This document shows positions 6,757 through 62,280 of a stretch of DNA of 64,000 bases, piece by piece (position 1 is the first letter of the stretch; the number at the start of each line of letters is the position of its first letter). The position numbers and the translations under genes were made by a program. The stretch covers positions 1,533-65,532 of the forward strand of contig JADKFV010000017.1 of the NCBI GenBank assembly GCA_016717325.1, in the 5' to 3' direction. Below the pieces are notes generated by a model. That model saw only the letters and a list, made by a program, of their open reading frames with translations. It was not told the DNA's origin and did not search any database. The DNA is from Bacteroidota bacterium (GTDB lineage Bacteria; Bacteroidota; Bacteroidia; AKYH767-A; OLB10).

Positions 6757-8148
6757 TTATTTTTTCTCCAAATCGGGTTCGAACAATTCGTCTTTACTCA
6801 CAACTTTTATTTTATCGCTTTCATTAATCAATTTCGAAATGGTAAGGTATGGTCCGGTAATAATTTTTTCGCCTCCCTTTAATCCGGTTTTTATTTCTAT
6901 AAAATTATTGTCCTGTATACCGGTAGATACCAATATGCGTTTGGCTTTTCCATCTTCAATTACAAATACACATTCTTTTATATTGGCTTCATCATCTTTC
7001 GAAGGCGCCTTATCATCCTTTTTTTCTTCCTCTTTATTTTCACCACCTATGGCTATTTTTATTTTTTTGGCATCAGCCTTTTTACTTGTATCGCGTGTAG
7101 TTACACATTGTATTGGCACAGCCACAACATTTGAAGCCTCCTTGGTACGTATTTCTACCGATGCCGACATGCCAGGGCGAAAAGGACTTTGGTTTGCATT
7201 CGATTCATTCATGAGGTCTTTATACGAGTCGCGAAGTATCCGCACTTTCACTGTATAGTTTGTTACCTGATCTGTGCTTTGTTGCATCAACGATGTTTTT
7301 GCAGCGTTTGCAATTTCAGTAACCACACCTTTAAATTTTCTATCGTCATACGCATCAATTTCTATATCGGCAGTATCGGCCATGCTTACACGTATAATAT
7401 CGGTTTCACTCACATCCACTATTACTTCCATTTCGTTGAGATTTGCAAGGCGCATAATTTCGGTACCATCCATCATATTTGTACCAACAACACGTTCCCC
7501 TTTCTCTTTGCTAAGCGATGAAATTGTTCCATCAACAGGAGCATATAAAATTGTTTTGTTGAGATTTTCCTGCGCTTGTTTGAGTGATGCATTTGCACCC
7601 TGTATGCCAAACTCCGATGCCTTTATATTTTGCAAAGCAGCATCCACTTCGGCTTTTGCAATGTCGTATGCCGATTTAGCATTCTCAAAATCCTGCTGCG
7701 AAATTACTTTATCATCATACAATTGTTTGGCACGTTTAAATGCAAAATCGGCTTTTTCGGATTGCGATTTTGCTTGCTCCATTCTCGATTTGCTTCCTGC
7801 CAATCCACTTTTACTTGTATTTACCGATGCCTTTACTCTATCCAAATCCGACAAATAAATATCGGGACGAATTTTTACTAGCAAGTCACCTTTCTTTACC
7901 ACTTGCCCTTCTTTTACAAAGAGGTCAACTATTTCGCCACTTACATCGCTGGTTATTTTTAGTTCTGCTTCGGGTTGTACTTTGCCGCTTGCTGTTACTA
8001 TCTCTACAATATTATGGCGCGAAACCAATTCCATGCTTACTTTCTTATCGCCACTTTCGCCAATGAGGCCATTCTTTTTTGCAACAACAAGCGCTATCAA
8101 AAGTATAACAGCTATAAGGCCTATGATAAACCATTTATTACGTAACAT
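6757..8148 (-). CDS. Efflux transporter periplasmic adaptor subunit (HlyD/MacA-type, membrane-anchored)
   Basis: 463 aa. N-terminal TM helix, long coiled-coil region, and beta-barrel/MP domain motifs (ILYAPVDGTIS, RPGMSASVEI). Immediately downstream of TolC on the same strand. Confidence 0.85.
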   Translation of the reverse strand: MLRNKWFIIGLIAVILLIALVVAKKNGLIGESGDKKVSMELVSRHNIVEIVTASGKVQPEAELKITSDVSGEIVDLFVKEGQVVKKGDLLVKIRPDIYLSDLDRVKASVNTSKSGLAGSKSRMEQAKSQSEKADFAFKRAKQLYDDKVISQQDFENAKSAYDIAKAEVDAALQNIKASEFGIQGANASLKQAQENLNKTILYAPVDGTISSLSKEKGERVVGTNMMDGTEIMRLANLNEMEVIVDVSETDIIRVSMADTADIEIDAYDDRKFKGVVTEIANAAKTSLMQQSTDQVTNYTVKVRILRDSYKDLMNESNANQSPFRPGMSASVEIRTKEASNVVAVPIQCVTTRDTSKKADAKKIKIAIGGENKEEEKKDDKAPSKDDEANIKECVFVIEDGKAKRILVSTGIQDNNFIEIKTGLKGGEKIITGPYLTISKLINESDKIKVVSKDELFEPDLEKK

Positions 8149-9713: not shown

Positions 9714-10670
9714 TTGTGTATGAGTAAATGGATAGAAACATTAGCGGCTAAATGGAAGCTTGACCCGGGCGAAAAGAGTAACATTGAAACCTACGAAAGC
9801 AAAAAACTTTTTTCCATTTATTATGAGTTACAAACGCTCATAACGGTTGGGGTTTTATTACTTGCTACTTCGGCAGGGATTTTTTTATATAAAAACATCG
9901 ACACTATAGGTCATTCCATTTTGGTATTGTTGACTGGCATTGCTGCTGTATCGTGTTTCGCATTTTGCATATTCAAAAAAGAAAAACAAGCAAACATTAC
10001 TTATTACGATAATGTTCTTTACCTCGGCTGCATGTTGCTTGTAAGTTGCGTTGGTTACTGGCAATATCAGTATGGTATTTTTGGCAATCATCATGCGTTT
10101 GCGATTTTAGTTCCGGCAATAATAATCACAGCATTTGCGTATTATTTTAACGACCGCGCCATTTTAAGTTTGGCTATTACACTTTGGGCCGGTTATTTAG
10201 GATTTACAATTTCGATACCGGCAATTTTGTATGGGCAAAATTTCAGATCGCTTCAACTTATCTTTACAGCAATTATATTTGCATGTGTGCTTATGGCATT
10301 GGCATATGCGCATTACCATTACAAAAAAAATCTTCCTTTTGGTTTTACTATTGCAAGCTTTGCTTTCCATATTATGTGTCTGGCATTGCTTGCAGGTATT
10401 TTTAATCAGCCTTATAGTTGGATTTGGGCAGCAACCCTCGTTGTTATTTGTTTTGCTGCTGTGCTATTTTCGTTGGTCGAGCAATCATATGCAACTTTTG
10501 TTTCGGCAGTGTTGTATACGTACATTGCTGTTTCTTATTTGTGTATCAATTTTTTGATGCATCATCACATTCTCGAGTCCACTTATTTTCTATTGATATA
10601 TTTTATTGCAACTTCCATTATGCTGATAAAATATATTCGTGAGGGAAAACAAAAATTATTTAAAGCCTGA
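9714..10670 (+). CDS. Polytopic integral membrane protein (possibly DUF2157-like)
   Basis: 318 aa. Soluble N-terminal about 40 aa followed by at least 8 hydrophobic helices. Translationally coupled to the next gene through a TGATG overlap at 10668-10672. Confidence 0.5.
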   Translation: MCMSKWIETLAAKWKLDPGEKSNIETYESKKLFSIYYELQTLITVGVLLLATSAGIFLYKNIDTIGHSILVLLTGIAAVSCFAFCIFKKEKQANITYYDNVLYLGCMLLVSCVGYWQYQYGIFGNHHAFAILVPAIIITAFAYYFNDRAILSLAITLWAGYLGFTISIPAILYGQNFRSLQLIFTAIIFACVLMALAYAHYHYKKNLPFGFTIASFAFHIMCLALLAGIFNQPYSWIWAATLVVICFAAVLFSLVEQSYATFVSAVLYTYIAVSYLCINFLMHHHILESTYFLLIYFIATSIMLIKYIREGKQKLFKA

Positions 10671-11845
10671 TGATTTATAATATAGAAAAACTGCGCAACA
10701 AATTATTGTTACCCATTGCTACAGAATGGATGGCAGAAAATGTAATGGATAAAAAGAATATTCCTTTACTAACACAAATGCAAAACGATGCATACAAACC
10801 ATCGCAAATAGCATTTCAGGTTGGGTTATTTTTGCTCACTTTTATTTTGGCTTTTTGCAGTGCCGGCCTGATTGCTATGTTTTTTGGATTTACAAATAGC
10901 AGCATGGCTTTCGGAATGATATGCTGTTTTTTTTCAATACTCAGTTTTGTTGCGGCCAATTATTTTATCAATACAAAATTGCATTTTAAAACCGGGGTCG
11001 ATACAGCCCTGTACTATTTTAGCATTATTAGCTTGATGCTTGGCATAGGTTTAATGCTCGATAATTTGTGGAACAATACCAGCACCCTCGTTGCTTTTTG
11101 TATGCTGTGCAGTGGGTTGCTTTTGCTTTACGCATTTCTGTTTTTCGATTTTGTGCTGGCCATGATTGCCATTATGGTATTTGCAACGGGATATGCAAAT
11201 GCCTTTTACGAAACAACAGCAATTATAAAACTTTGTGCCAGTTTACTTTTTCCATTTGTGTGTTTTGCTTTTTATAAAACCATACTCTATTTCGAATACA
11301 AAATGGATGTGGTATACCAAAACATTTTTCCTTATTGTAAATTCATGCTGGCAGTAGTTGCTTACATTGCTATCAACCGGTCGTTTATAAACGAAGTTTT
11401 TTTTGAGTATACTTTAAAATACCTCAATAAAAATGTGTTTGCTGCATTTTCTATTTTCTCTGTTGCATGGAGTTGGCTGCTTCCGTTAGTTTATATTTTT
11501 TACGGTTTATACAAAAACGAACGCTCGTTTCTTCTTGCGGGCATAACATGTATGGCATTGTTCATTTGTTCGATTCCGTATTTTCATCCTTCAGCTATTC
11601 CCGAAGTAATGATGCTGATAGGAAGTGTATCATGTTTTATTTTTGTTGGCCTGGCAAATTATTTTTTCAAAAACAATGCATGGAAAATAACACTACAAAA
11701 ATCGAAATACGATAGCGCAATCTTATCGAAAGAAATGCAAGGCATCATCCTGTCGCAAGCCATAGCAACCAAAACTATTTCGCAAGAAAGAACAGAATTT
11801 GGTGGTGGCAAGTTTGGTGGCGGGGGTGGTAGTGGGGAGTATTGA
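10670..11845 (+). CDS. Polytopic integral membrane protein (possibly DUF4401-like) with a Gly-rich C-terminal tail
   Basis: 391 aa, many TM helices. The C-terminus EFGGGKFGGGGGSGEY is encoded by G/T-rich DNA that runs straight into the GTATTGAG repeat arm. Confidence 0.5.
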   Translation: MIYNIEKLRNKLLLPIATEWMAENVMDKKNIPLLTQMQNDAYKPSQIAFQVGLFLLTFILAFCSAGLIAMFFGFTNSSMAFGMICCFFSILSFVAANYFINTKLHFKTGVDTALYYFSIISLMLGIGLMLDNLWNNTSTLVAFCMLCSGLLLLYAFLFFDFVLAMIAIMVFATGYANAFYETTAIIKLCASLLFPFVCFAFYKTILYFEYKMDVVYQNIFPYCKFMLAVVAYIAINRSFINEVFFEYTLKYLNKNVFAAFSIFSVAWSWLLPLVYIFYGLYKNERSFLLAGITCMALFICSIPYFHPSAIPEVMMLIGSVSCFIFVGLANYFFKNNAWKITLQKSKYDSAILSKEMQGIILSQAIATKTISQERTEFGGGKFGGGGGSGEY

Positions 11846-12030
11846 GATGTTTAGTATTGGGTATTGAGATGTTTAGTATTGAGACTTTGGGATTTTAGTA
11901 TTGAGACTGGTTGTATTGAGTATTGAGATTTTAGTGTTGAGACTTTGGAATTTTTGGAATTGAGATTTTTAGACTTTTGGTATTGGGATTATTGGATTTT
12001 TAGTTTTTGAATTTTTAATCTTTTAAGAAG
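11846..12030. repeat. Left arm of an IVS-like element: degenerate tandem (GTATTGAGA/TTTTAGTATTGGG)n low-complexity repeats
   Basis: Seen directly. It is the reverse complement of the 12540-12740 arm, sharing GACTTTTGGTATTGGG and GATTTTTAGTTTTTGA blocks. Confidence 0.75.
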
Positions 12031-12039
12031 AAATAGACG

Positions 12040-12415
12040 ATGCATAATTTTAAAAAACTACATGCTTGGAATGCTTCTATCGAAATGGTAACTGACGTAT
12101 ATAAATTCACAGAAACATTTCCCAAAACAGAAATCTATGGCTTAACAAATCAAATGCGGAGGTGTGCGGTTTCAATTTCATCAAATATTGCAGAAGGAGC
12201 TGGGAGGCCATCAAATCTAAAATTCAGAGTTTTTTTGGGGTACGCTTATGGGTCGAGTTGCGAATTAGAAACGTAAATGATTATCGCTAACAAATTAAAT
12301 TTCCTAAACTCCGAAACCCTCGAACGATTATCAGCAAGCCTAAGCGAAATACAAAAATGATTTTCAAACTATCGCAATCTTTAAAAGACGAAACCAAAAA
12401 ACAACCAAATTAAAT
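12040..12415 (+). pseudogene. Four-helix-bundle protein (23S rRNA intervening-sequence protein family) with an in-frame TAA at 12274-12276
   Basis: My translation gives ..FLGYAYGSSCELET*MIIANKLNFLNSETLERLSASLSEIQKMIFKLSQSLKDETKKQPN*. The family consensus has CELETQLII, so Q (CAA) has become TAA. The downstream frame is still intact. Confidence 0.75.
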
Positions 12416-12539
12416 GGCCTTCTAAATTTAAACTAAATCCAAAATCGAAAACTACCATTCTCTAAAAAATTCTACATAAAAAATACTCAATCCTAAATAT
12501 GTAAAAAACAATAGTTCCAATTCTTAAAATTTAAAAAAG

Positions 12540-12740
12540 TTCTGATACTGAAAAACTAAAAATCTCCACATAAAAAGTCTCAATACCCATTACTGTCAAT
12601 CTCAATACTCATAAACCAAAAGTCTCAATACCCAATAAAATCAATCTCAATACTCACAGTCTCAATACCCAATACTATCAATCTCAATACCCAATACCAA
12701 AAGTCTAAATACCCAATACTATCAATCTCAATACTAAAAA
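12540..12740. repeat. Right arm of the IVS-like element: (TCTCAATAC/CCCAATAC)n, reverse complement of the left arm
   Basis: Seen directly. Confidence 0.75.
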
Positions 12741-12746
12741 AAAATA

Positions 12747-13730
12747 CTACTTCCCCGCCAAGGCGTTCTTTAATTTTGTAATTACGTTTACTTCTACAGC
12801 ATCTATTCCTTTCATATCGGCAAGGTAGCAACTTATCCAGTCGCCAATATGCACAAGGTAAAGGGTGCGTGCCAGTTTTGATTCACCTTTCGACCATACT
12901 TCAATAATTGTTGATGTTACATTCGAAGCTACTTCTTTGGTATAGTCAAGTCGTGTTTGGGTGCGTATATAGTCATCGTTGTTGCGCATAAAAATTACGG
13001 CAAGGTTTTCATTTTTTTCAACCCACCCTACCAATTCATTGTGATTCATTTCGGGCAATGCATGATGCCAGCAAAGCATTTTGGAATTCTCGTTTATCTG
13101 TTGACGGAACCGAACACATACTCCTTCGTAACCGGCATCGCTATATAGAACAGCAATTTTGCCCATTACTTTTTTTGCTACTTCCATAGCTTCGGCTTGA
13201 GTTGCTTCTTCATTGGCCTGGAGCATTTTTATGGCATCGTTTATTTCGCCTAAAAACTTATCGCTGCACAACCCTTTTTTATTCAGCACAAAAAACAATT
13301 GCGTGAATGAATAACCAAACATTGCGCGTGGTGGCATTCCTCCGGGAATAATAATATTTTCGATACCGTTGGTGCGTGCCAGGTCAATTATTTTTCCTCC
13401 CGAAGCCACACAAACTATTTGCGCACCTTTTTTTAATGCCACTTCAAAAGCCTGCACAGTTTCTTCGGTATTGCCCGAGTAGGAACAAACTATAACAAGT
13501 GTATGTTGATTGATAAATGCTGGCGGAAAATAATCTTTACATACTACAACCGGCACTGCAAGTTCCTGGTCTAAGCATTGCGCGGCTATAGTGCCACCTA
13601 TGCCCGACCCGCCAAGGCCTGTAATAAGCACATTACGAATTTCGATTTCCCGTTTTGCAATCGCAGCATTTTGTCCTATTTCGATTGCGGCACTAAGGTG
13701 GGCCGAAAAATCGGCAACTAAATTTTTCAT
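12747..13730 (-). CDS. Bifunctional phosphoglucose/phosphomannose isomerase (SIS domain)
   Basis: 327 aa. Motifs ITGLGGSGIGG and VCSYSGNTEET, and the overall PGI/PMI family layout. Confidence 0.75.
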   Translation of the reverse strand: MKNLVADFSAHLSAAIEIGQNAAIAKREIEIRNVLITGLGGSGIGGTIAAQCLDQELAVPVVVCKDYFPPAFINQHTLVIVCSYSGNTEETVQAFEVALKKGAQIVCVASGGKIIDLARTNGIENIIIPGGMPPRAMFGYSFTQLFFVLNKKGLCSDKFLGEINDAIKMLQANEEATQAEAMEVAKKVMGKIAVLYSDAGYEGVCVRFRQQINENSKMLCWHHALPEMNHNELVGWVEKNENLAVIFMRNNDDYIRTQTRLDYTKEVASNVTSTIIEVWSKGESKLARTLYLVHIGDWISCYLADMKGIDAVEVNVITKLKNALAGK

Positions 13731-19128: not shown

Positions 19129-19165
19129 TTGAAAATATTAAGATTACAAATGTATTATTTGTTGC
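19118..19165 (-). promoter_or_regulatory. Duplicate of the Fic promoter/leader (-7 TACATTTG) driving the 19128 gene
   Basis: Sequence identity to 18083-18135 including the ATGGCCACC start codon context. Confidence 0.45.
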
Positions 19166-19235
19166 TCATCAGACTTAAGTTTTGAGATACATTTGGATTT
19201 GGAATGAGGCACTAAGTGAAAATAATAATTGTAAA

Positions 19236-19690
19236 TCTGTCCTCGGTTGGCGTCCCCGCCACCCGCCTTGCTGCATACATTATTTACATATAAACCAAAA
19301 TCATATGCTGCATTTGAGACAATCGATTTATTATCAAATCGCATTCTAGTGTATTGCTAAAAATCCGAAATAAATCATAGCAAAATATAAAAATTGCTGT
19401 GAAATATTTTTCGAAATAAGCGGGTGGCGGGGACGCCAACCGAGGACAAAGAAATCATTCAAAGCAGAATATAAAAATTGCTGTTATATTTTTTTGCAAA
19501 ATATGCGGGTGGCGGGGACGCCAACCGAGGACAAAATCGGAAATCATTCATAGTAGAGTTTAAAAATTGTTTTGAAATATTTTTGAGATGTAAGCGATTG
19601 GCAGGGACGCCAACCGAGGACAAGGAATTGCTTTGTAATGTTTTGAGAAATAAACGGGTGGCTGCGAAGACAACCGAAGACAAGCAAAAA
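19236..19690. repeat. GC-rich tandem array: 4 direct copies of an about 85-bp unit containing GCGGGTGGCGGGGACGCCAACCGAGGACAA, plus one inverted copy at 19236-19268
   Basis: Core copies at about 19420, 19504, 19591 and 19655 (degenerate). The AT-rich parts between cores are also similar to each other, so this is not CRISPR. The cores are GC-rich inside an AT-rich genome. Confidence 0.8.
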
Positions 19691-26502: not shown

Positions 26503-27524
26503 GATAATCTATTGCATTATTATTAAAATTGTAACACCTCCGAAAAGTACAATATTTTTAACAACGATATACTTTTACCAAAATTTATTTGGTTACCATT
26601 ATAAAAACCTTGCACCTATTTCAACTAACAAGTTGTGCCTTTAAATATTATCAAATCGCTTCTTATAAAAAAGAAATAACCATTATAAGTGGAAATATAT
26701 TGTGCGCATTATTTACCATTAACTTTGCAATATGACCAACAAAATATTTTTTTACATTACTATTAAAGTGATATATCACAAAAGAAGGTTTCTTACTTTT
26801 ATTTTACTTGAGGCATCTAAACTGATATGGTTTTGAACCACGAAAAAATTTGTAAATAAATCATCATCACTTTATTTACTTACCTCTCATATCATTTATT
26901 TATTGGATTGTAAATATATTTAAGCACGGTGCCGATTCAAGCAAAGAAAATATTTTCAAGATAAACCTGCGTGGATTTTTTGGGCTTCAATTCGGCCACC
27001 GCTTGCAATCTACTTTTGCCGGATAAGCCTTAGTAAATTTTATTTGATTCAATTAACTCTTCCTGCCATTTCAATAATTTTATAGCATATACTTTTTTAC
27101 TTACGTTTTCTATTATGTAACATAAGCATTATAAAATGAAAACTACCCTTCGTTAAAATCTATTGTAAATCCATGAACGACAGGGTTTTTGTGAATACAA
27201 CATATTAAGGTTAAAAGATAGTCAGCAATATAAGCGCGCTTTTCAATAATATTTTCAAGAAACAAACTCCCGTTGTGAACCACAACTTTATTAAATGTAT
27301 TTGTTTACGAATTCAAAGAAATGGCGCCAGAAATTGTTTCAAGGTGATTTTTGTAAATGATGCAGGAGGGTTTCTTTTAACTGATTTTGCCATTACGATT
27401 TATTGGAGGTGATATTCATGTTTATTTTCTTCTTCTGTTTCTATATATCACAAAACAATCCCGATTGGGATTAAAACAGGAATCATCTCAATGAGTGACG
27501 TGGCATTTATTTTTCTGAGAGAAT

Positions 27525-28491: not shown

Positions 28492-29778
28492 TTATTTTAG
28501 TAAATCAACAATAGCTATCGCTGCTTTCTTTCCATTAGCCACTGCATTCACTACTTCTTGTCCGCCACTAACTGCATCGCCTGCAGCAAAATATTTTTTA
28601 TTGGTGGTTTGAAAAATTTCGTTCACAATGATTTTTCCCTTTTCGTCAGTTTTTAATTCACCAATTAAATTTAATAAATCCAACTGTTTTGTTTGGCCCG
28701 TTCCTTTAACAACCCAATCGCAGTTAAGAGTATGTTCGGTGCCATCTGCTGATTTTAGTTTTATGCCGCTCACTTTTCCATTTCCCAAAATTTCGACAGG
28801 AGTAAAATTAAACATTCCTGCAACACCAACAGTTTTAGCCAACTCGTATTCAAAATTATATGCAGGCATTTCTTCTTTGCTTCTGCGATAAGCAAGTATT
28901 ACTTCGGCACCCATGCGTGCACATTCGCTTGCTGCATCCATAGCAGTGTTTCCGCCACCCAATACAACTACTTTTTTGGGAACAGTAATTTTATGATGAT
29001 TCATTCTTAACTGTTCAACAAATTCAACAGCACCAAAAACATTTTCTAATTCTTCGCCTTTTATTTTTAAGTCTGAAGTTTTTCCTAAACCTATTGCAAT
29101 AAAAATGGTGTCATAATTTTTTTCGAGTAATGCTATATCTTCTTTGGTTGTAATAGTTTTGTTGTAATGAACTTTATATCCGAATTGCTTTTGCAAATAT
29201 TCCATTTCATTCAAAGCTTCGTCATTAGTAATTTTATATGGTGCAACTCCATGTACTGTTAGTCCTGATGGTTTTTCTTTGGCTTCAAAAACATCTACTT
29301 CAAATCCATGCAGTCGCAATTCGCAGGCACAACTTATACCTGCAGGGCCGGCACCAATTATTGCAACTTTCTTTCCGTTTGAATTGGCGAGGGTATAAAA
29401 CTTTTTATCATTACTAATTGCTTTGCCCGTTGCAAAACTTTGCAGTCTTCCAATAGCAATTGGCATTACATCACTGTGATTGTATACGCAGGCGCCTTCG
29501 CACAGCACTTCGGTAGGGCAAACTTTACCGCATGCATAACCAAAATAATTGGAGTCGTAAATGGTTTTTGCTGCACCCATTTCATTTTTTGCATTTATCT
29601 GTCTTATAAAAAGCGGAATGTCGATACCCGTTGGACAAGCATTCACACATGGTGCATCGTAACAAAACAAACAGCGCGAACTTTCATAGTAGGCTTCTGT
29701 TTGACTCATCAATGGTTTTATCTGCGAAAAATTCTTTTCGAACTCTTCTTCTGTTTGTGGTGTTTTGTATTCTGACAT
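28492..29778 (-). CDS. preT: NAD-dependent dihydropyrimidine dehydrogenase subunit PreT (glutamate-synthase small-subunit-like)
   Basis: 428 aa. N-terminal 4Fe-4S CLFCYDAPCVNACPTG and dinucleotide fold VAIIGAGPAGISCA. Confidence 0.85.
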   Translation of the reverse strand: MSEYKTPQTEEEFEKNFSQIKPLMSQTEAYYESSRCLFCYDAPCVNACPTGIDIPLFIRQINAKNEMGAAKTIYDSNYFGYACGKVCPTEVLCEGACVYNHSDVMPIAIGRLQSFATGKAISNDKKFYTLANSNGKKVAIIGAGPAGISCACELRLHGFEVDVFEAKEKPSGLTVHGVAPYKITNDEALNEMEYLQKQFGYKVHYNKTITTKEDIALLEKNYDTIFIAIGLGKTSDLKIKGEELENVFGAVEFVEQLRMNHHKITVPKKVVVLGGGNTAMDAASECARMGAEVILAYRRSKEEMPAYNFEYELAKTVGVAGMFNFTPVEILGNGKVSGIKLKSADGTEHTLNCDWVVKGTGQTKQLDLLNLIGELKTDEKGKIIVNEIFQTTNKKYFAAGDAVSGGQEVVNAVANGKKAAIAIVDLLK

Positions 29779-29785
29779 TTTCTTA

Positions 29786-29860
29786 GTATTGAGTAATTAG
29801 TAGTTAGTACTTAGTATTGAGTATTTTGTAGTTTGTTGTTTGTATTGAGTAGTTATTATT
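29786..29860. repeat. Low-complexity (GTATTGAGTA/GTAGTTAGTA)n arm; partner arm at 30360-30455
   Basis: Seen directly. Together the two arms form inverted arms around the 4HB ORF at 29921-30274. Confidence 0.7.
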
Positions 29861-29920
29861 TAGCTTTATGACCATGCAGTTGGTATTGAACGATATTTTT
29901 GGTGTACTTAACAAATGTAT

Positions 29921-30274
29921 TTAAGATTTTAAAGATTGCATCAATTTATAAATCATTTTTTCAATCTCATTTAAATTATAGGTTAACTTTGTTTGATCTT
30001 CTGAACTCATAAAATTTAAATTACAGGCAATGATTAATTGAGTTTCTAATTCACAACAAGAGCCATAAGCCTATCCTAAAAATAATTTGAATTCTCCAAT
30101 TCCCTTTCTGCCTGCCCCTTCAGCTATATTTGATGGAATAGAAACAGCACACCTGCGCATTTGATTTGTTAATCCATATGTTTCTGTTTTCGGAAACGAT
30201 TCCGTAGTCTTATAAATTTCAGTTACCAGGTTAATAGCTGAAATCCAAACATTCAATTTTTTAAAATCATGCAT
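29921..30274 (-). pseudogene. Four-helix-bundle protein (IVS protein family) with an in-frame TAG after codon 67
   Basis: Translation ..EFKLFLG*AYGSCCELETQLIIACNLNFMSSEDQTKLTYNLNEIEKMIYKLMQSLKS*. The paralog at 12040 has FLGYAYGSSCELET at this point, so Tyr (TAY) has become TAG. The downstream frame is conserved. Confidence 0.7.
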
Positions 30275-30359
30275 TTCTAACTATTTTTTTCAATATTGAA
30301 GAATAACTACTCATAACCATTTTACTCAATTTTAAATACTGCATCCTCACCACAAACAT

Positions 30360-30455
30360 TATTTTCTCAATACCATTTACTCTATAATAAGTACTAAATA
30401 CTAATTACCAATTACCCAATACTAAGCACCCAATACCAATTACCCAATACCAATT
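30360..30455. repeat. Low-complexity (CCCAATACCAATTA)n arm, reverse-complement type
   Basis: Seen directly. Confidence 0.7.
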
Positions 30456-31320
30456 ACAACTCCGTCAACCTACCATAAGTCTCTGGTCTTCTATCTCTAA
30501 AGAATTGCCATACCGAACGTACTTCATCTATCATATCTAAATCAAAATCCGCAACTAAAAGTTCATCATTGTCTTCGGATGCTTGTGCAAAAATTTGTCC
30601 GCGAGGATCAACGAAATAACTGCTACCATAAAACTTGCCTACGCTCCATGGCTTTTCAATTCCTACACGATTAATGCATCCCATAAAATATCCATTGGCT
30701 GCAGCATGTGCAGGTTGTTCCAACTTCCATAAATATTGCGAAAGGCCTGCAACCGTAGCCGATGGATTGTAAACAATTTCGGCACCATTCAAACCAAATG
30801 CACGTGCACCTTCGGGAAAATGACGATCGTAACAAATGTAAACGCCCACTTTTGCATAGCGCGTTTGAAAAACCGGATAACCTAAATTACCGGGCTTGAA
30901 GAAAAATTTTTCCCAAAAACCTGAAGTGTGCGGAATATGATTTTTGCGATACTTACCAAGGTAAGTTCCATCAGCATCAATCACTGCGGCAGTGTTATAC
31001 AATACTCCGGCTTGCTCCTTTTCGTAAATAGGAACAATGATTACCATGCTATATTTTTTCGCATAGGTCTGCATCAGTTCAGTTGTAGGGCCGGGAACAG
31101 TTTCGGCACTTGCATACCATTTTGCATCTTGCCCTGGGCAAAAATATGGCGTGTTAAAAATTTCCTGCAGACACAAAATCTGCACGCCTTTTTTCCCTGC
31201 TTCTTCAATCAAGGGAATATGCTTTGCAACCATTGCATCTACAATTTCCTTAATGGTGCCTTCGCCCTCTGTTTTGGGCAACGACATTTGGATTAATCCT
31301 GATTTTATTATTCGTGACAT
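30454..31320 (-). CDS. Beta-ureidopropionase / N-carbamoyl-beta-alanine amidohydrolase (nitrilase superfamily)
   Basis: 288 aa. Carbon-nitrogen hydrolase fold with catalytic Glu-Lys-Cys context (VGVYICYDRHFPE). Sits between dihydropyrimidinase and preT. Confidence 0.8.
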   Translation of the reverse strand: MSRIIKSGLIQMSLPKTEGEGTIKEIVDAMVAKHIPLIEEAGKKGVQILCLQEIFNTPYFCPGQDAKWYASAETVPGPTTELMQTYAKKYSMVIIVPIYEKEQAGVLYNTAAVIDADGTYLGKYRKNHIPHTSGFWEKFFFKPGNLGYPVFQTRYAKVGVYICYDRHFPEGARAFGLNGAEIVYNPSATVAGLSQYLWKLEQPAHAAANGYFMGCINRVGIEKPWSVGKFYGSSYFVDPRGQIFAQASEDNDELLVADFDLDMIDEVRSVWQFFRDRRPETYGRLTEL

Positions 31321-31341
31321 AGTTATTATGTTGTTAAGTTA

Positions 31342-31732: not shown

Positions 31733-31801
31733 TTTTTTTATTTTTATAATTCAGCACAATACAGAACAAACAAAAGCTCAACAGCCCAATAACCCAATAA
31801 C

Positions 31802-33184
31802 TTAAATTATTCCACTTACCTTTTTCCTTTTCACGAACACTCCGTATCCTTTTTTAATTTTCACATCGCCATTATCTATTGCAAGTTGTCCGCGCAAAAT
31901 TGTTTTCTCTACTTTGCCTTTCAACTTCCATCCTTCGTATGCAGAATAGTCGACATTCATGTGATGTGTTTTTGCAGAAATGGTATGTTCTTTATTGGGA
32001 TCGAAAATAATAATATCGGCATCGCTGCCAACTGCTATACATCCTTTCTTTGGAAACATACCAAATATTTTTGCTGCATTTGTTGATGTAACCTCTACAT
32101 ATTTATTGAGCGATATTCTACCTGTGTTTACTCCTTCATTAAAAAGTAATTCCATACGATTTTCTATTGCAGGATGTCCGTTTGGAATTTTCGAAAAATC
32201 TTTTTCTCCCAATAATTTTTTCTCCCATGTAAATGGGCAATGGTCAGTAGCTACCACTTGTACTGTTCCTTGATTGATACCTGCCCATAAAGTTTCCTGA
32301 TCTTTTTTCTGCCGAAGTGGAGGACTCATCACCCACTTGGCACCATCAAAATCTTTTTCGTACAACGATGCATCGAGAATTAAATATTGAATACATGTTT
32401 CAGCAAAAACTTTTTGATTTCTTTTTTCCACATCGCGAATATGATTGAGTGCACCCTCACAAGTCATGTGCACTACATATGCAGGGACACCCGTATAATT
32501 TGCCATGTCGGCAAAACGTCCTGTAGCTTCGGCCTCGGTAATTTCGGGTTGCGATAAATAATGATACAATGGTGATAGCTTTCCTTCGGAACGATGTTTT
32601 GCAATTAAAAAATCGATCATATCGCCATTGGTTGCATGAACGGTAACAATACCACCTTGCAATTTTACTTCATTCATAAGACCAACCATCTGCCTGTCAT
32701 CTATCATTAATGCACCTTTGTAAGCCATAAAAGTTTTGAAAGATACGATGCCCTCTTCCTCCACCATCTCTTTGATTTCTTTTTTAGTATCGTCATTAAA
32801 ATCCGTAACAGCCATATGAAAAGAATAATCGCCATAGCAATTTCCATTGCTGCGGCCTTGCCATTCGCGCAAAGCATTGTGTAACGATTTACCTTGCGTT
32901 TGCAAAATAAAATCAATCACCATGGTTGTGCCGCCATGCAATGCAGCAAGTGTTCCTGTTTCATAATTATCGCTCGAGAATGTTCCCATAAAAGGCATAT
33001 CGAGATGAACGTGTGGATCTATTCCTCCGGGAAAAACAAATTTTCCAGCAGCATCAATTATTGTATCGGCATCGTTCGAAATATTTTTTCCGATTGCAGA
33101 AATTGTTTCGCCCTCCACAAAAATATCAGCAACGTAATCATCCGATGCTGTTATCACTCTTCCGTTTTTAATTAATATTGACAT
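31802..33184 (-). CDS. Dihydropyrimidinase (D-hydantoinase family cyclic amidohydrolase)
   Basis: 460 aa. MSILIKNGRVIT..GGIDPHVHLDMPF metal-binding HxH motif and the overall hydantoinase fold. Confidence 0.85.
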   Translation of the reverse strand: MSILIKNGRVITASDDYVADIFVEGETISAIGKNISNDADTIIDAAGKFVFPGGIDPHVHLDMPFMGTFSSDNYETGTLAALHGGTTMVIDFILQTQGKSLHNALREWQGRSNGNCYGDYSFHMAVTDFNDDTKKEIKEMVEEEGIVSFKTFMAYKGALMIDDRQMVGLMNEVKLQGGIVTVHATNGDMIDFLIAKHRSEGKLSPLYHYLSQPEITEAEATGRFADMANYTGVPAYVVHMTCEGALNHIRDVEKRNQKVFAETCIQYLILDASLYEKDFDGAKWVMSPPLRQKKDQETLWAGINQGTVQVVATDHCPFTWEKKLLGEKDFSKIPNGHPAIENRMELLFNEGVNTGRISLNKYVEVTSTNAAKIFGMFPKKGCIAVGSDADIIIFDPNKEHTISAKTHHMNVDYSAYEGWKLKGKVEKTILRGQLAIDNGDVKIKKGYGVFVKRKKVSGII

Positions 33185-61314: not shown

Positions 61315-61349
61315 CCCCTAAATCCCCCGCTGGGGGACTTGAACACCCC

Positions 61350-61880
61350 CAACCCCCGCTGGGGGCTTACCAAAGCTCGGATGGCATATTGTGTGTTTAT
61401 CTTATTTAGTTGCAAAAAAAATGGTATCTCATGGATAAATTGTATTTTGAAAGTTTGTATAAAGGCGCAAAGCCAATTCAATTTGAATTTGCACAACAGA
61501 TGCGCAAAGAGCCTACACAGGCAGAATCAATTTTATGGACATATTTATCCGGCAAGCAAATGCAAGGTTTGAAATTTAGAAGGCAACATCCATTAGACAA
61601 TTTTATTTTAGATTTTTATTGTCATGAAATAAAATTGAGTATCGAATTGGATGGGAAAATACATCAGAATGAATTGCAAGCAACTTATGATAAAGAACGA
61701 ACCAAGTGCTTACAAGATAAGGGCATTAACGAACTCCGATTTAAAAATGAAACAATCATTAATCGAATTACTGATGCACTCAATGAAATTGAAAAAACAA
61801 TAAGACAAATAAAACGAAAGCAATATGATACCAAAAATCCAGCATAGCAAAGACAAGCCCCCAGCGGGGGTTGGGGGTGT
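61350..61880. mobile_element. Mini-element: DUF559 endonuclease-like gene flanked by perfect 20-bp GC-rich terminal inverted repeats (CCCCCAACCCCCGCTGGGGG on the left, CCCCCAGCGGGGGTTGGGGG on the right)
   Basis: The left repeat at about 61350-61375 and the right repeat at about 61856-61880 are exact reverse complements. An extra CCCCCGCTGGGGG hairpin lies at 61333. Inserted between two paralogous genes. Confidence 0.6.
61410..61847 (+). CDS. DUF559 domain protein (Vsr/restriction-endonuclease-like fold)
   Basis: 145 aa. ESILW..LKFRRQHPLDNFILDFYCHEIKLSIELDGKIH..YDKERTKCLQDKGINELRFKN matches the DUF559 signature (FRRQ, DFYC, IELDG.H, D.ER, LRF.N). Confidence 0.75.
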   Translation: MQKKWYLMDKLYFESLYKGAKPIQFEFAQQMRKEPTQAESILWTYLSGKQMQGLKFRRQHPLDNFILDFYCHEIKLSIELDGKIHQNELQATYDKERTKCLQDKGINELRFKNETIINRITDALNEIEKTIRQIKRKQYDTKNPA

Positions 61881-61888
61881 ATTATTAC

Positions 61889-62280
61889 CGCAATGCCCCC
61901 TGATAGGTGGCTCAGCTGTGTATTTGGCAAGACCAATTGTAGAAATGTTTGATGACAATATCATGTACAATGATGCGGCAATTTGTTTAAGTCAAGGGGT
62001 TATTATGAAAATGTCAAATCAAGTAACAGCGGATGAAACTATTGCCACCGTAAAAGTATATCCAAACCCGGCTAAAGATGAAATCAATTTTGAATTTGGG
62101 AACGGCACATATTTCAAACTAATTATTTATGATAGTTTTGGTAAAGAAATACGTTTGGAATTAATGCAAAGCAAAATTGAATACAAATTATCAACCACAG
62201 ATATTGCAAATGGCATTTATCGTTATAAGTTAATTGGTGTGCCACATGAAATATCCGGAAAAATTGTAATATTAAAGTAA
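61889..62280 (+). pseudogene. Orphan C-terminal fragment (last about 130 aa including the T9SS CTD) homologous to the C-terminus of the giant 54983..59764 protein
   Basis: CPLIGGSAVYLARPIVEMFDDNIMYNDAAICLSQGV..NGIYRYKLIGVPHEISGKIVILK aligns with the giant's ..NMCPLIGGPAVYLARPIVELYDENIVYNDQAVCLSQGV..NGIYRYKLMNDTIELTGKIVIVK. Homology begins right after the DUF559 element's right repeat. Confidence 0.6.

Follow-up and report, generated by a model that had tools for sequence, protein, structure and literature searches.

The systems that lie closest to the genes described here are the intervening sequences (IVSs) of 23S rRNA, of which the Leptospira IVS, known from work by Ralph and McClelland in 1993/1994, is said to be the founding member: an ORF flanked by inverted repeats, reportedly excised by RNase III and with evidence of interspecies horizontal transfer. 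For homing-endonuclease genes, Goddard and Burt reportedly set out, in 1999, a cycle of invasion, fixation, degeneration and loss. Avd, in turn, is a pentameric protein that binds nucleic acid and reverse transcriptase.

The Leptospira work is cited in a study of the 23S IVS of Coxiella burnetii, in which an S23p (PF05635) ORF is located between terminal inverted repeats and RNase III cuts the element out (Warrier et al. 2016, PMC4990558). Horizontal acquisition of the Coxiella IVS was followed by vertical inheritance; its ORF has been described as 'undergoing reductive evolution' and is probably not translated (PMC4990558). The family has also been linked to Avd (PMC10053308), and one of its relatives, XCC0516, is a homopentamer of four-helix bundles (PMC4990558).

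The stretch of DNA analysed here, 64 kb in its entirety and referred to as the window, contains three disrupted PF05635 genes, each enclosed by long complementary arms and located between protein-coding genes. These three copies (c1, c2 and c3) are likely to be recently inactivated selfish or accessory elements of the IVS type that occupy protein-gene spacers and, after long residence there, have ORFs in decay. Decay of a selfish element is in itself ordinary; the setting outside rRNA is less familiar.

Disrupted PF05635 copies in the window

Exactly three copies of PF05635/TIGR02436 (23S rRNA-intervening sequence protein, or 'four helix bundle protein') were found in the window, both by tblastn with repaired proteins and by a six-frame hmmsearch with a profile built from 120 homologs, and each of them is broken, as an earlier note on this DNA had maintained for all three four-helix-bundle (4HB) genes. 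The copies are located at 12040-12412 on the plus strand (c1), 30274-29924 on the minus strand (c2) and 31732-31342 on the minus strand (c3), and an intact four-helix ORF of about 110-130 aa is absent at all three. After repair, c1, c2 and c3 score 119.3, 126.6 and 93.8 bits, respectively, against Pfam PF05635 (cutoff 33.8), covering profile positions 1-105/106, while the intact alleles P0217, P0001 and P0219 score 122.7, 121.5 and 74.9 bits against TIGR02436 (cutoff 24). Pairwise identity among the three copies is 38-66 %, with c3 belonging to a different PF05635 subfamily. Judged from their sequences, c1-c3 are pseudogenes of PF05635/TIGR02436 and not functional members.

The family to which they belong is large, as more than 7,600 PF05635 relatives from many phyla are retrieved with a single query at E<=1e-10, and relatives at about 50 % identity are spread across many phyla, including archaeal and CPR MAGs. 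The median length among the 120 homologs is 116 aa. The best match to the window 4HB genes in a GTDB genome shows 63 % identity, and a scan of JGI metagenomes yielded no 4HB relative above 54 % identity and no new alleles; the JGI loci were used solely to replicate the hairpin test described below. The sole solved structure matched by sequence is that of XCC0516 of Xanthomonas campestris (PDB 2GSC; E=2.5e-24).

Two lesions are present in c1. At 12274-12276 (plus strand), a TAA replaces an invariant Gln (CELET*MIIA), which confirms the earlier report of a conserved Gln at this position: the column is Gln in 120/120 homologs, and the codon is CAA in the orthologs L085, L086 and L087. The residue directly after the stop, however, is M and not the L of the CELETQLII motif that had been given. 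The second lesion, which had been missed, consists of an A-run of five at 12353-12357 (plus strand), where L085, L086 and L087 have six; because one A is absent, the resulting -1 frameshift brings the frame to a TGA at 12358-60, 27 codons after the TAA, and the +1 frame encodes the final 19 residues (KMIFKLSQSLKDETKKQPN). In c2, the single lesion is a TAG at 30071-30073 (minus strand), which stands in place of Tyr (FLG*AYGS), as claimed; the codon is TAT in all four closest alleles (L001, L082, L083 and L084), the column being Tyr in 68/120 and Ile in 34/120 homologs, and the frame beyond the TAG is open for 49 codons to the normal stop. The statement that both stops are followed by about 45 in-frame codons is thus correct for c2 but not for c1. 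The third copy had rightly been called frameshifted: in comparison with three orthologs, 8 nt (TGAAACAT) are deleted between GSLY and (T)LEHLIC, with the junction at about 31511/31512. The view that the lesions are substitutions and not homopolymer indels, and hence hardly sequencing errors, stands for the two nonsense codons, and the 8-nt deletion in c3 is likewise hardly a sequencing error, but the view fails for the A-run of c1. In the family alignment, the protein does not normally end at either nonsense codon, since none of the 120 homologs terminates before the column of the c1 or the c2 stop.

The damage is concentrated in the three 4HB genes, with four lesions in about 1.1 kb of 4HB coding sequence, as the other ORFs that were checked look intact. 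No split gene was found among 20 other window ORFs, and the Pfam domains of the window's housekeeping enzymes are matched from end to end (PGI C-terminal domain, CN_hydrolase, guanylate kinase and LeuRS).

Orthologous alleles and decay of the ORFs

Related contigs, whose orthology was judged by common flanking genes, allow the history of the lesions to be followed. At the c1 locus, L085, L086 and L087 share the DUF2157/membrane-protein and PGI-like flanks and retain both the CAA and the run of six A, and the intact 121-aa allele P0217 is carried by L085 and L086. The c2 locus is present in L082, L083 and L084 in the same CN-hydrolase - 4HB - PreT arrangement, and L001 carries a 99 % identical element; the intact allele, P0001, is likewise 99 % identical. 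The c3 orthologs in L088, L089 and L090 are undeleted and intact, P0219 being the intact allele, and in L089, a more distant MAG, the gene order is dihydropyrimidinase - 4HB - CN-hydrolase - PreT. Because close relatives hold intact alleles at the same loci, all four lesions of the window are, on these sequence comparisons, derived, recent and lineage-specific, and the suggestion of the earlier note that the elements are decaying is upheld by the related alleles, which are intact at the c1, c2 and c3 lesion sites.

Several relatives carry lesions of their own. An AAA>TAA change is found at codon 6 in L083, a T-run frameshift in L087 (product P0218) and the loss of the stop codon in L082. In a metagenome sample of the family drawn from unrelated loci, only 4 of 84 HSPs, representing three independent copies, contain nonsense codons, at codons 10, 45 and 74. 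Since three independent metagenome copies carry stops, nonsense-disrupted members recur across the family at scattered positions, lesions in other strains and lineages having been found at codons 6, 10, 45, 65 and 74. The omega values of the 4HB genes (0.12-0.48 in pairwise Nei-Gojobori comparisons, as opposed to 0.02-0.08 for the neighbouring genes) indicate that the 4HB protein was under long-term purifying selection until recently, although selection was weaker than on the neighbours.

The observed lesions could also be read as the outcome of selection for loss or truncation, in which either the intact protein is harmful or an N-terminal three-helix fragment is useful, so that knock-outs repeatedly strike the ORFs close to the boundary between helices 3 and 4 and spare the hairpins. 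Four of the six lesions in the species group do fall within codons 65-79, independent inactivation recurs across strains (4 of 11 alleles), and the arms are still strongly complementary despite the dead ORFs. Nevertheless, the concentration of local lesions within codons 65-79 does not reach significance (p=0.077), the lesion of L083 lies at codon 6 and those of other lineages at codons 10 and 45, intact alleles are retained by sister strains, and the long-term omega is below 0.5. As neutral decay predicts the same pattern with fewer assumptions, selected loss is regarded as improbable. The related proposal that the product is tolerated only when truncated does not agree with the full-length P0217, P0001 and P0219 of sister strains, with omega values of 0.12-0.48 or with the scatter of the lesions. 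The presence of three dead copies out of three in one genome could, on the other hand, have a lineage-specific cause, such as the loss of a partner function.

That errors of sequencing or assembly produced the lesions, and that the genes are truly intact, is a distinctly improbable reading, even though the difference between A5 and A6 in c1 is one of homopolymer length, a classic type of error, and the c1 A-run frameshift, the L087 T-run frameshift and the c2 TAG were each read from single assemblies. Two of the lesions are substitutions, a third removes 8 nt from non-repetitive sequence, and a 78-aa truncated c1 product identical to that of the window was called in a separate Logan assembly (P0121). 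Moreover, with the other checked ORFs intact, errors would have had to strike just three small genes. An assembly error may accordingly account for the A-run of c1 but is unlikely to account for the other three lesions.

Anatomy and predicted folding of the elements

Each element is built from a PF05635 ORF of about 117-130 codons placed between a G/U-rich repeat arm and its A/C-rich complement. The ORF thus occupies the loop of a long imperfect stem, which reaches across the entire spacer, with the upstream stop codon at one end and the neighbouring gene at the other. Inverted repeats were detected for all three elements, with arms of about 70-330 nt that consist of low-complexity tandem arrays.

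In element 1, the 5' arm (11839-12039, plus strand) is a G/T-rich, C-poor tandem array of a 22-nt unit, GTATTGAGATGTTTAGTATTGAG, which begins on the stop codon (TGA, 11843-45) of a membrane-protein gene (10670-11845). In the predicted fold it pairs with the complementary 3' arm (12413-12746, plus strand), an A/C-rich, G-poor array of the unit TCTCAATACCCAATACTATCAA, which extends to the stop codon of a convergent PGI-like gene (12747-13730). The other two elements are located on the minus strand, within a run of four same-strand pyrimidine-catabolism genes whose orientation c2 and c3 share, in the order dihydropyrimidinase, c3, CN-hydrolase, c2, PreT. The 5' arm of element 2 (GGTATTGGGTAATT repeats, 30275-30453) directly follows the TAA of the upstream CN-hydrolase gene (beta-ureidopropionase-like, 30454-31320), and its 3' arm (CTCAATAC repeats, 29779-29923) leaves 4 nt to the start codon (ATG) of the PreT-like gene (28492-29778). 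In element 3, the 5' arm (GTTATTGGG repeats, 31733-31801) comes directly after the stop codon of the dihydropyrimidinase-like gene (31802-33184), while the 3' arm (AACATAATAAC repeats, 31321-31341) overlaps the ORF at its end and reaches up to the CN-hydrolase ATG. In elements 2 and 3 alike, a stop codon immediately precedes the first arm, and the second arm finishes 1-4 nt short of the following ATG.

The predicted fold of the whole c1 element is a single long stem (-215.8 kcal/mol, z=-14.5), and in that of the c2 spacer the first bases pair with the last (z=-5.3). In each of the three window elements, the predicted fold of the sense strand is more stable than that of the antisense strand, by 6-15 kcal/mol. 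The window contains 30 occurrences of the motif GTATTGRG where 3.2 would be expected, and elements 1 and 2 account for 25 of the 30. Conservation within the elements is lowest in the outer arms, as repeat units are gained and lost there.

No further 4HB copies and no ORF-less solo hairpins of the same arm type were found within the window. An Rfam scan of the window at gathering thresholds gave Flavo-1 as its sole match, with no family covering the arms and no rRNA; the elements are located between protein-coding genes and not in helix 25 or 45 of 23S rRNA. With regard to the criteria used for MITEs and insertion sequences, the arms are long, degenerate arrays of strain-variable length, no target-site duplication is definable and no transposase is adjacent; a possible second insertion context is provided by L001 only, a 700-nt contig. 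Neither a transposase nor a reverse transcriptase was found near the elements.

The membrane protein encoded upstream of c1 (window 11780-11845, and likewise in L085, L086 and L087) ends in a Gly-rich C-terminal tail, GGGKFGGGGGSGEY. The DNA encoding this tail is G/T-rich and C-poor and runs seamlessly into the 5' arm, the stop codon being the TGA of the first GTATTGAGA unit, and the C-terminus of the membrane protein may partly be derived from element sequence. In L089, the CN-hydrolase - PreT (bup-preT) spacer is 93 nt long (7297-7389) and contains no 4HB gene. Its halves are GT-rich and AC-rich and resemble the arms of the c3-type element of L089, with a predicted fold of z=-2.1 to -3.1; it could be the relic of an element whose ORF was lost or a pre-existing hairpin.

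Several other features of the window were recorded alongside the elements. The Flavo-1 RNA (RF01705) is located at 848-937 on the minus strand, within a 512-nt spacer, and scores 74.3 bits against a gathering score of 42; together with T9SS sorting domains and the nearest 4HB matches, it points to Bacteroidota as the origin of the window. The 330-nt spacer at 19129-19458 is strongly structured (z of about -9 to -13). In it, a GC-rich, near-perfect inverted repeat of about 33 bp (GTCCTCGGTTGGCGTCCCCGCCACCCGCTT...) surrounds approximately 150 nt without an ORF; this repeat is MITE-like and unrelated to the 4HB arms. A DUF559 gene with a Vsr-like endonuclease fold (61410-61847, in the region 61315-61900) is preceded by the GC-rich palindromic motif CCCCCGCTGGGGG and followed by CCCCCAGCGGGGG. 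It lies between two paralogous T9SS-sorted proteins of 498-500 aa and adjoins a 151-aa ORF that has a Por_Secre_tail domain only, and it may be another small selfish gene with inverted-repeat flanks and may have split a paralog. Finally, the pyrimidine-catabolism cluster includes 1 kb (26503-27524) without an ORF longer than 48 aa, flanked by a PreA-like gene and a gene for a 314-aa protein without a Pfam match. A 46-aa ORF within it (27143-27283, minus strand; ...YLLTLICCIHKNPVVHGF) bears a faint resemblance to the C-termini of IS200/RayT-type transposases and has no Pfam match.

Complementary flanks across the PF05635 family

The enclosure of the ORF by complementary sequence is not limited to the window. 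When the 150-nt flanks of 83 PF05635 genes from GTDB were joined by a loop and folded, the median z was -3.1, compared with -0.6 for control windows shifted by 1.8 kb (p=7e-16), and the result was replicated in 67 metagenome loci (p=2e-16). The partner-swap test, which was directed against a generic effect of structured intergenic regions, compared the energy gained by joining a flank to its true partner with that gained from GC-matched flanks of other loci. True partner arms were superior to non-partner arms in 127 of 147 loci (p=7e-21), with a median energy gain of -20.4 as opposed to -9.8 kcal/mol. The preference for folding of the sense strand is weak across the 83 other loci (54 vs 29, p=0.03), and the counts of G:U pairs in these loci do not differ between the sense and antisense strands. 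From these predicted folds, PF05635 members are typically enclosed by partner-specific complementary flanks, also outside rRNA.

It might be argued that there is no element at all, and that native host spacer hairpins, serving as processing sites or terminators, merely adjoin 4HB genes that are ordinary host genes. This explanation gains some credit from the bup-preT spacer of L089, in which similar GT-rich and AC-rich segments are still present without a 4HB gene; the L089 hairpin is, however, weak (z=-2.1 to -3.1) and could equally be an element relic, and the c2 site, empty in L089, is occupied in some relatives. As the window's remaining spacers are for the most part without structure, the arm motif is restricted to the elements (25/30 GTATTGRG matches) and partner-specific flank complementarity travels with PF05635 genes across phyla, native hairpins are a very improbable account.

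The idea that the stops are programmed, through readthrough, recoding, frameshifting or the use of TAA and TAG as sense codons, is scarcely credible despite the position of two stops at conserved residues with the frame still open downstream, given that the genetic code is standard (TAA and TAG end 36 of the 47 long ORFs of the window, with 26 TAA, 10 TAG and 11 TGA), that no tRNA gene is present in the window, that orthologous alleles have ordinary sense codons at both sites, that the lesions are of four kinds, so that c1 would require readthrough as well as a +1 shift and c3 the bridging of an 8-nt deletion, and that the stops of other lineages lie at unrelated positions.

Residence of the elements and possible horizontal exchange

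The age of the elements must be distinguished from that of their lesions. The site of each copy is also occupied in relatives in which synonymous divergence of the flanking genes ranges from about 0.1 to more than 2, the level of saturation. Together with the 38-66 % identity among the copies, this long occupancy of the sites identifies the elements as old residents with no recent burst, and the recent proliferation assumed in the earlier note is not supported.

In some comparisons, the ORF is nevertheless less diverged than the genes around it. Between c2 and L082, pS is 0.17 for the 4HB ORF and 0.55-0.72 for the adjacent host genes, and the corresponding values are 0.22 and 0.50 between c2 and L083 and 0.05 and 0.20 between c1 and L085/L086; this contrast is absent for c3 vs L088 and c2 vs L084. 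The signal comes from short, low-coverage metagenome contigs with about 70 synonymous sites each. The 99 % identical element of L001, moreover, stands beside an unrelated, GC-rich upstream flank, on a 700-nt contig of 1.4x coverage that could be chimeric. Low ORF pS, the L001 flank and the relatives in multiple phyla suggest horizontal exchange or re-invasion of the element core, although these sequence-based hints are thin evidence, taken as they are from short contigs of low coverage.

The host genes on the ERZ28573525 contigs (L083, L085 and L088) are themselves unevenly diverged from the window, with synonymous divergence of 0.09 at the 5' end of bup, 0.23 for PGI, 0.32 for dhp and 0.84 for preT, which points either to the coexistence of several related strains in the sample or to a gene cluster that is a mosaic formed by recombination.

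Proposed life cycle and implications

The reading of c1-c3 as recently inactivated IVS-type elements is favoured because the window elements match the Coxiella IVS in both anatomy and evolutionary behaviour. By analogy with this system, the stem would form in the host transcript and join the flanking host RNA ends, and RNase III would cut it, as it does with the rRNA IVS, so that the insertion would be nearly neutral for the host genes. The 4HB protein would then serve the spread or maintenance of the element and not the host. Once the element had become fixed at a site, the ORF would no longer be maintained and would decay, in a course of invasion, decay and loss like that of homing-endonuclease genes. 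We know of no mobility mechanism described for PF05635 proteins.

A broader generalization can be offered tentatively and is itself doubtful: PF05635 4HB genes in general may be the cargo of widespread, undescribed hairpin-embedded selfish elements, which are IVS-like but not specific to rRNA. Such elements would colonise junctions of stop and start codons, be insulated from host mRNAs by long G/U : A/C repeat stems that are probable RNase III substrates, re-invade the same sites in diverged lineages and then decay, leaving structured spacers that are possibly co-opted as processing sites. Such re-invasion would account for an element core whose synonymous divergence is 2-4 times lower than in the host genes next to it. 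In the limited library of literature consulted, PF05635 genes flanked by hairpins were described nowhere outside rRNA, which makes their novelty provisional.

In practical terms, c1-c3 should be annotated as pseudogenes, neither as short hypothetical proteins nor as candidates for recoding. The family-wide flanks tie the whole of the very large PF05635 family to the IVS phenomenon. The proposed reading predicts that cluster transcripts are processed by RNase III at the stems, that element and host genealogies are discordant, and that the elements pass through a cycle of invasion and decay. If true, it would explain the multi-copy, patchy spread of 'four helix bundle proteins' and would add a new source of structured spacers between protein-coding genes.

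Comparison with known systems

In their population behaviour, the window elements resemble the homing-endonuclease cycle, as long-term purifying selection is combined with knock-outs that are frequent, recent and independent among the resident copies, relatives differ in whether a given site is occupied, and some comparisons show an element core younger than its flanks. The likeness has its bounds, since site-specific re-invasion of the window elements is deduced solely from dS contrasts on short contigs and PF05635 proteins, unlike homing endonucleases, are not known to have nuclease activity or any other activity that would confer mobility.

At the level of the protein, bAvd (the accessory variability determinant of diversity-generating retroelements, DGRs; PF22296/NF033474) belongs to the same four-helix-bundle fold family as the window copies. 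The similarity of c1 and c2 to bAvd is weak, with about 20 bits for NF033474 (cutoff 80) and 19-22 bits for PF22296 (cutoff 40), and, in contrast to the Avd of DGRs, neither a reverse transcriptase nor a template/variable repeat is located beside any window copy, the neighbours being PGI-like, membrane, CN-hydrolase, PreT-like and dihydropyrimidinase-like genes.

The rRNA IVSs remain the closest counterparts. The Leptospira IVS differs in its rRNA location and in its ORFs, which are mostly intact, whereas the window elements occupy protein-gene spacers and their ORFs are dead. Similarly, the Coxiella IVS is inserted in helix 45 of 23S rRNA, while two of the three window elements are located within a pyrimidine-catabolism gene cluster; its terminal inverted repeat measures 28 bp, as opposed to low-complexity tandem arrays of about 70-330 nt in the window; and its excision by RNase III is experimental, whereas processing of the window elements is predicted by analogy. 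Nevertheless, the window elements, like the Coxiella IVS, contain a PF05635 ORF between complementary terminal sequences that form a long stem, which is predicted in the present case, and in both systems the element persists while its ORF decays.
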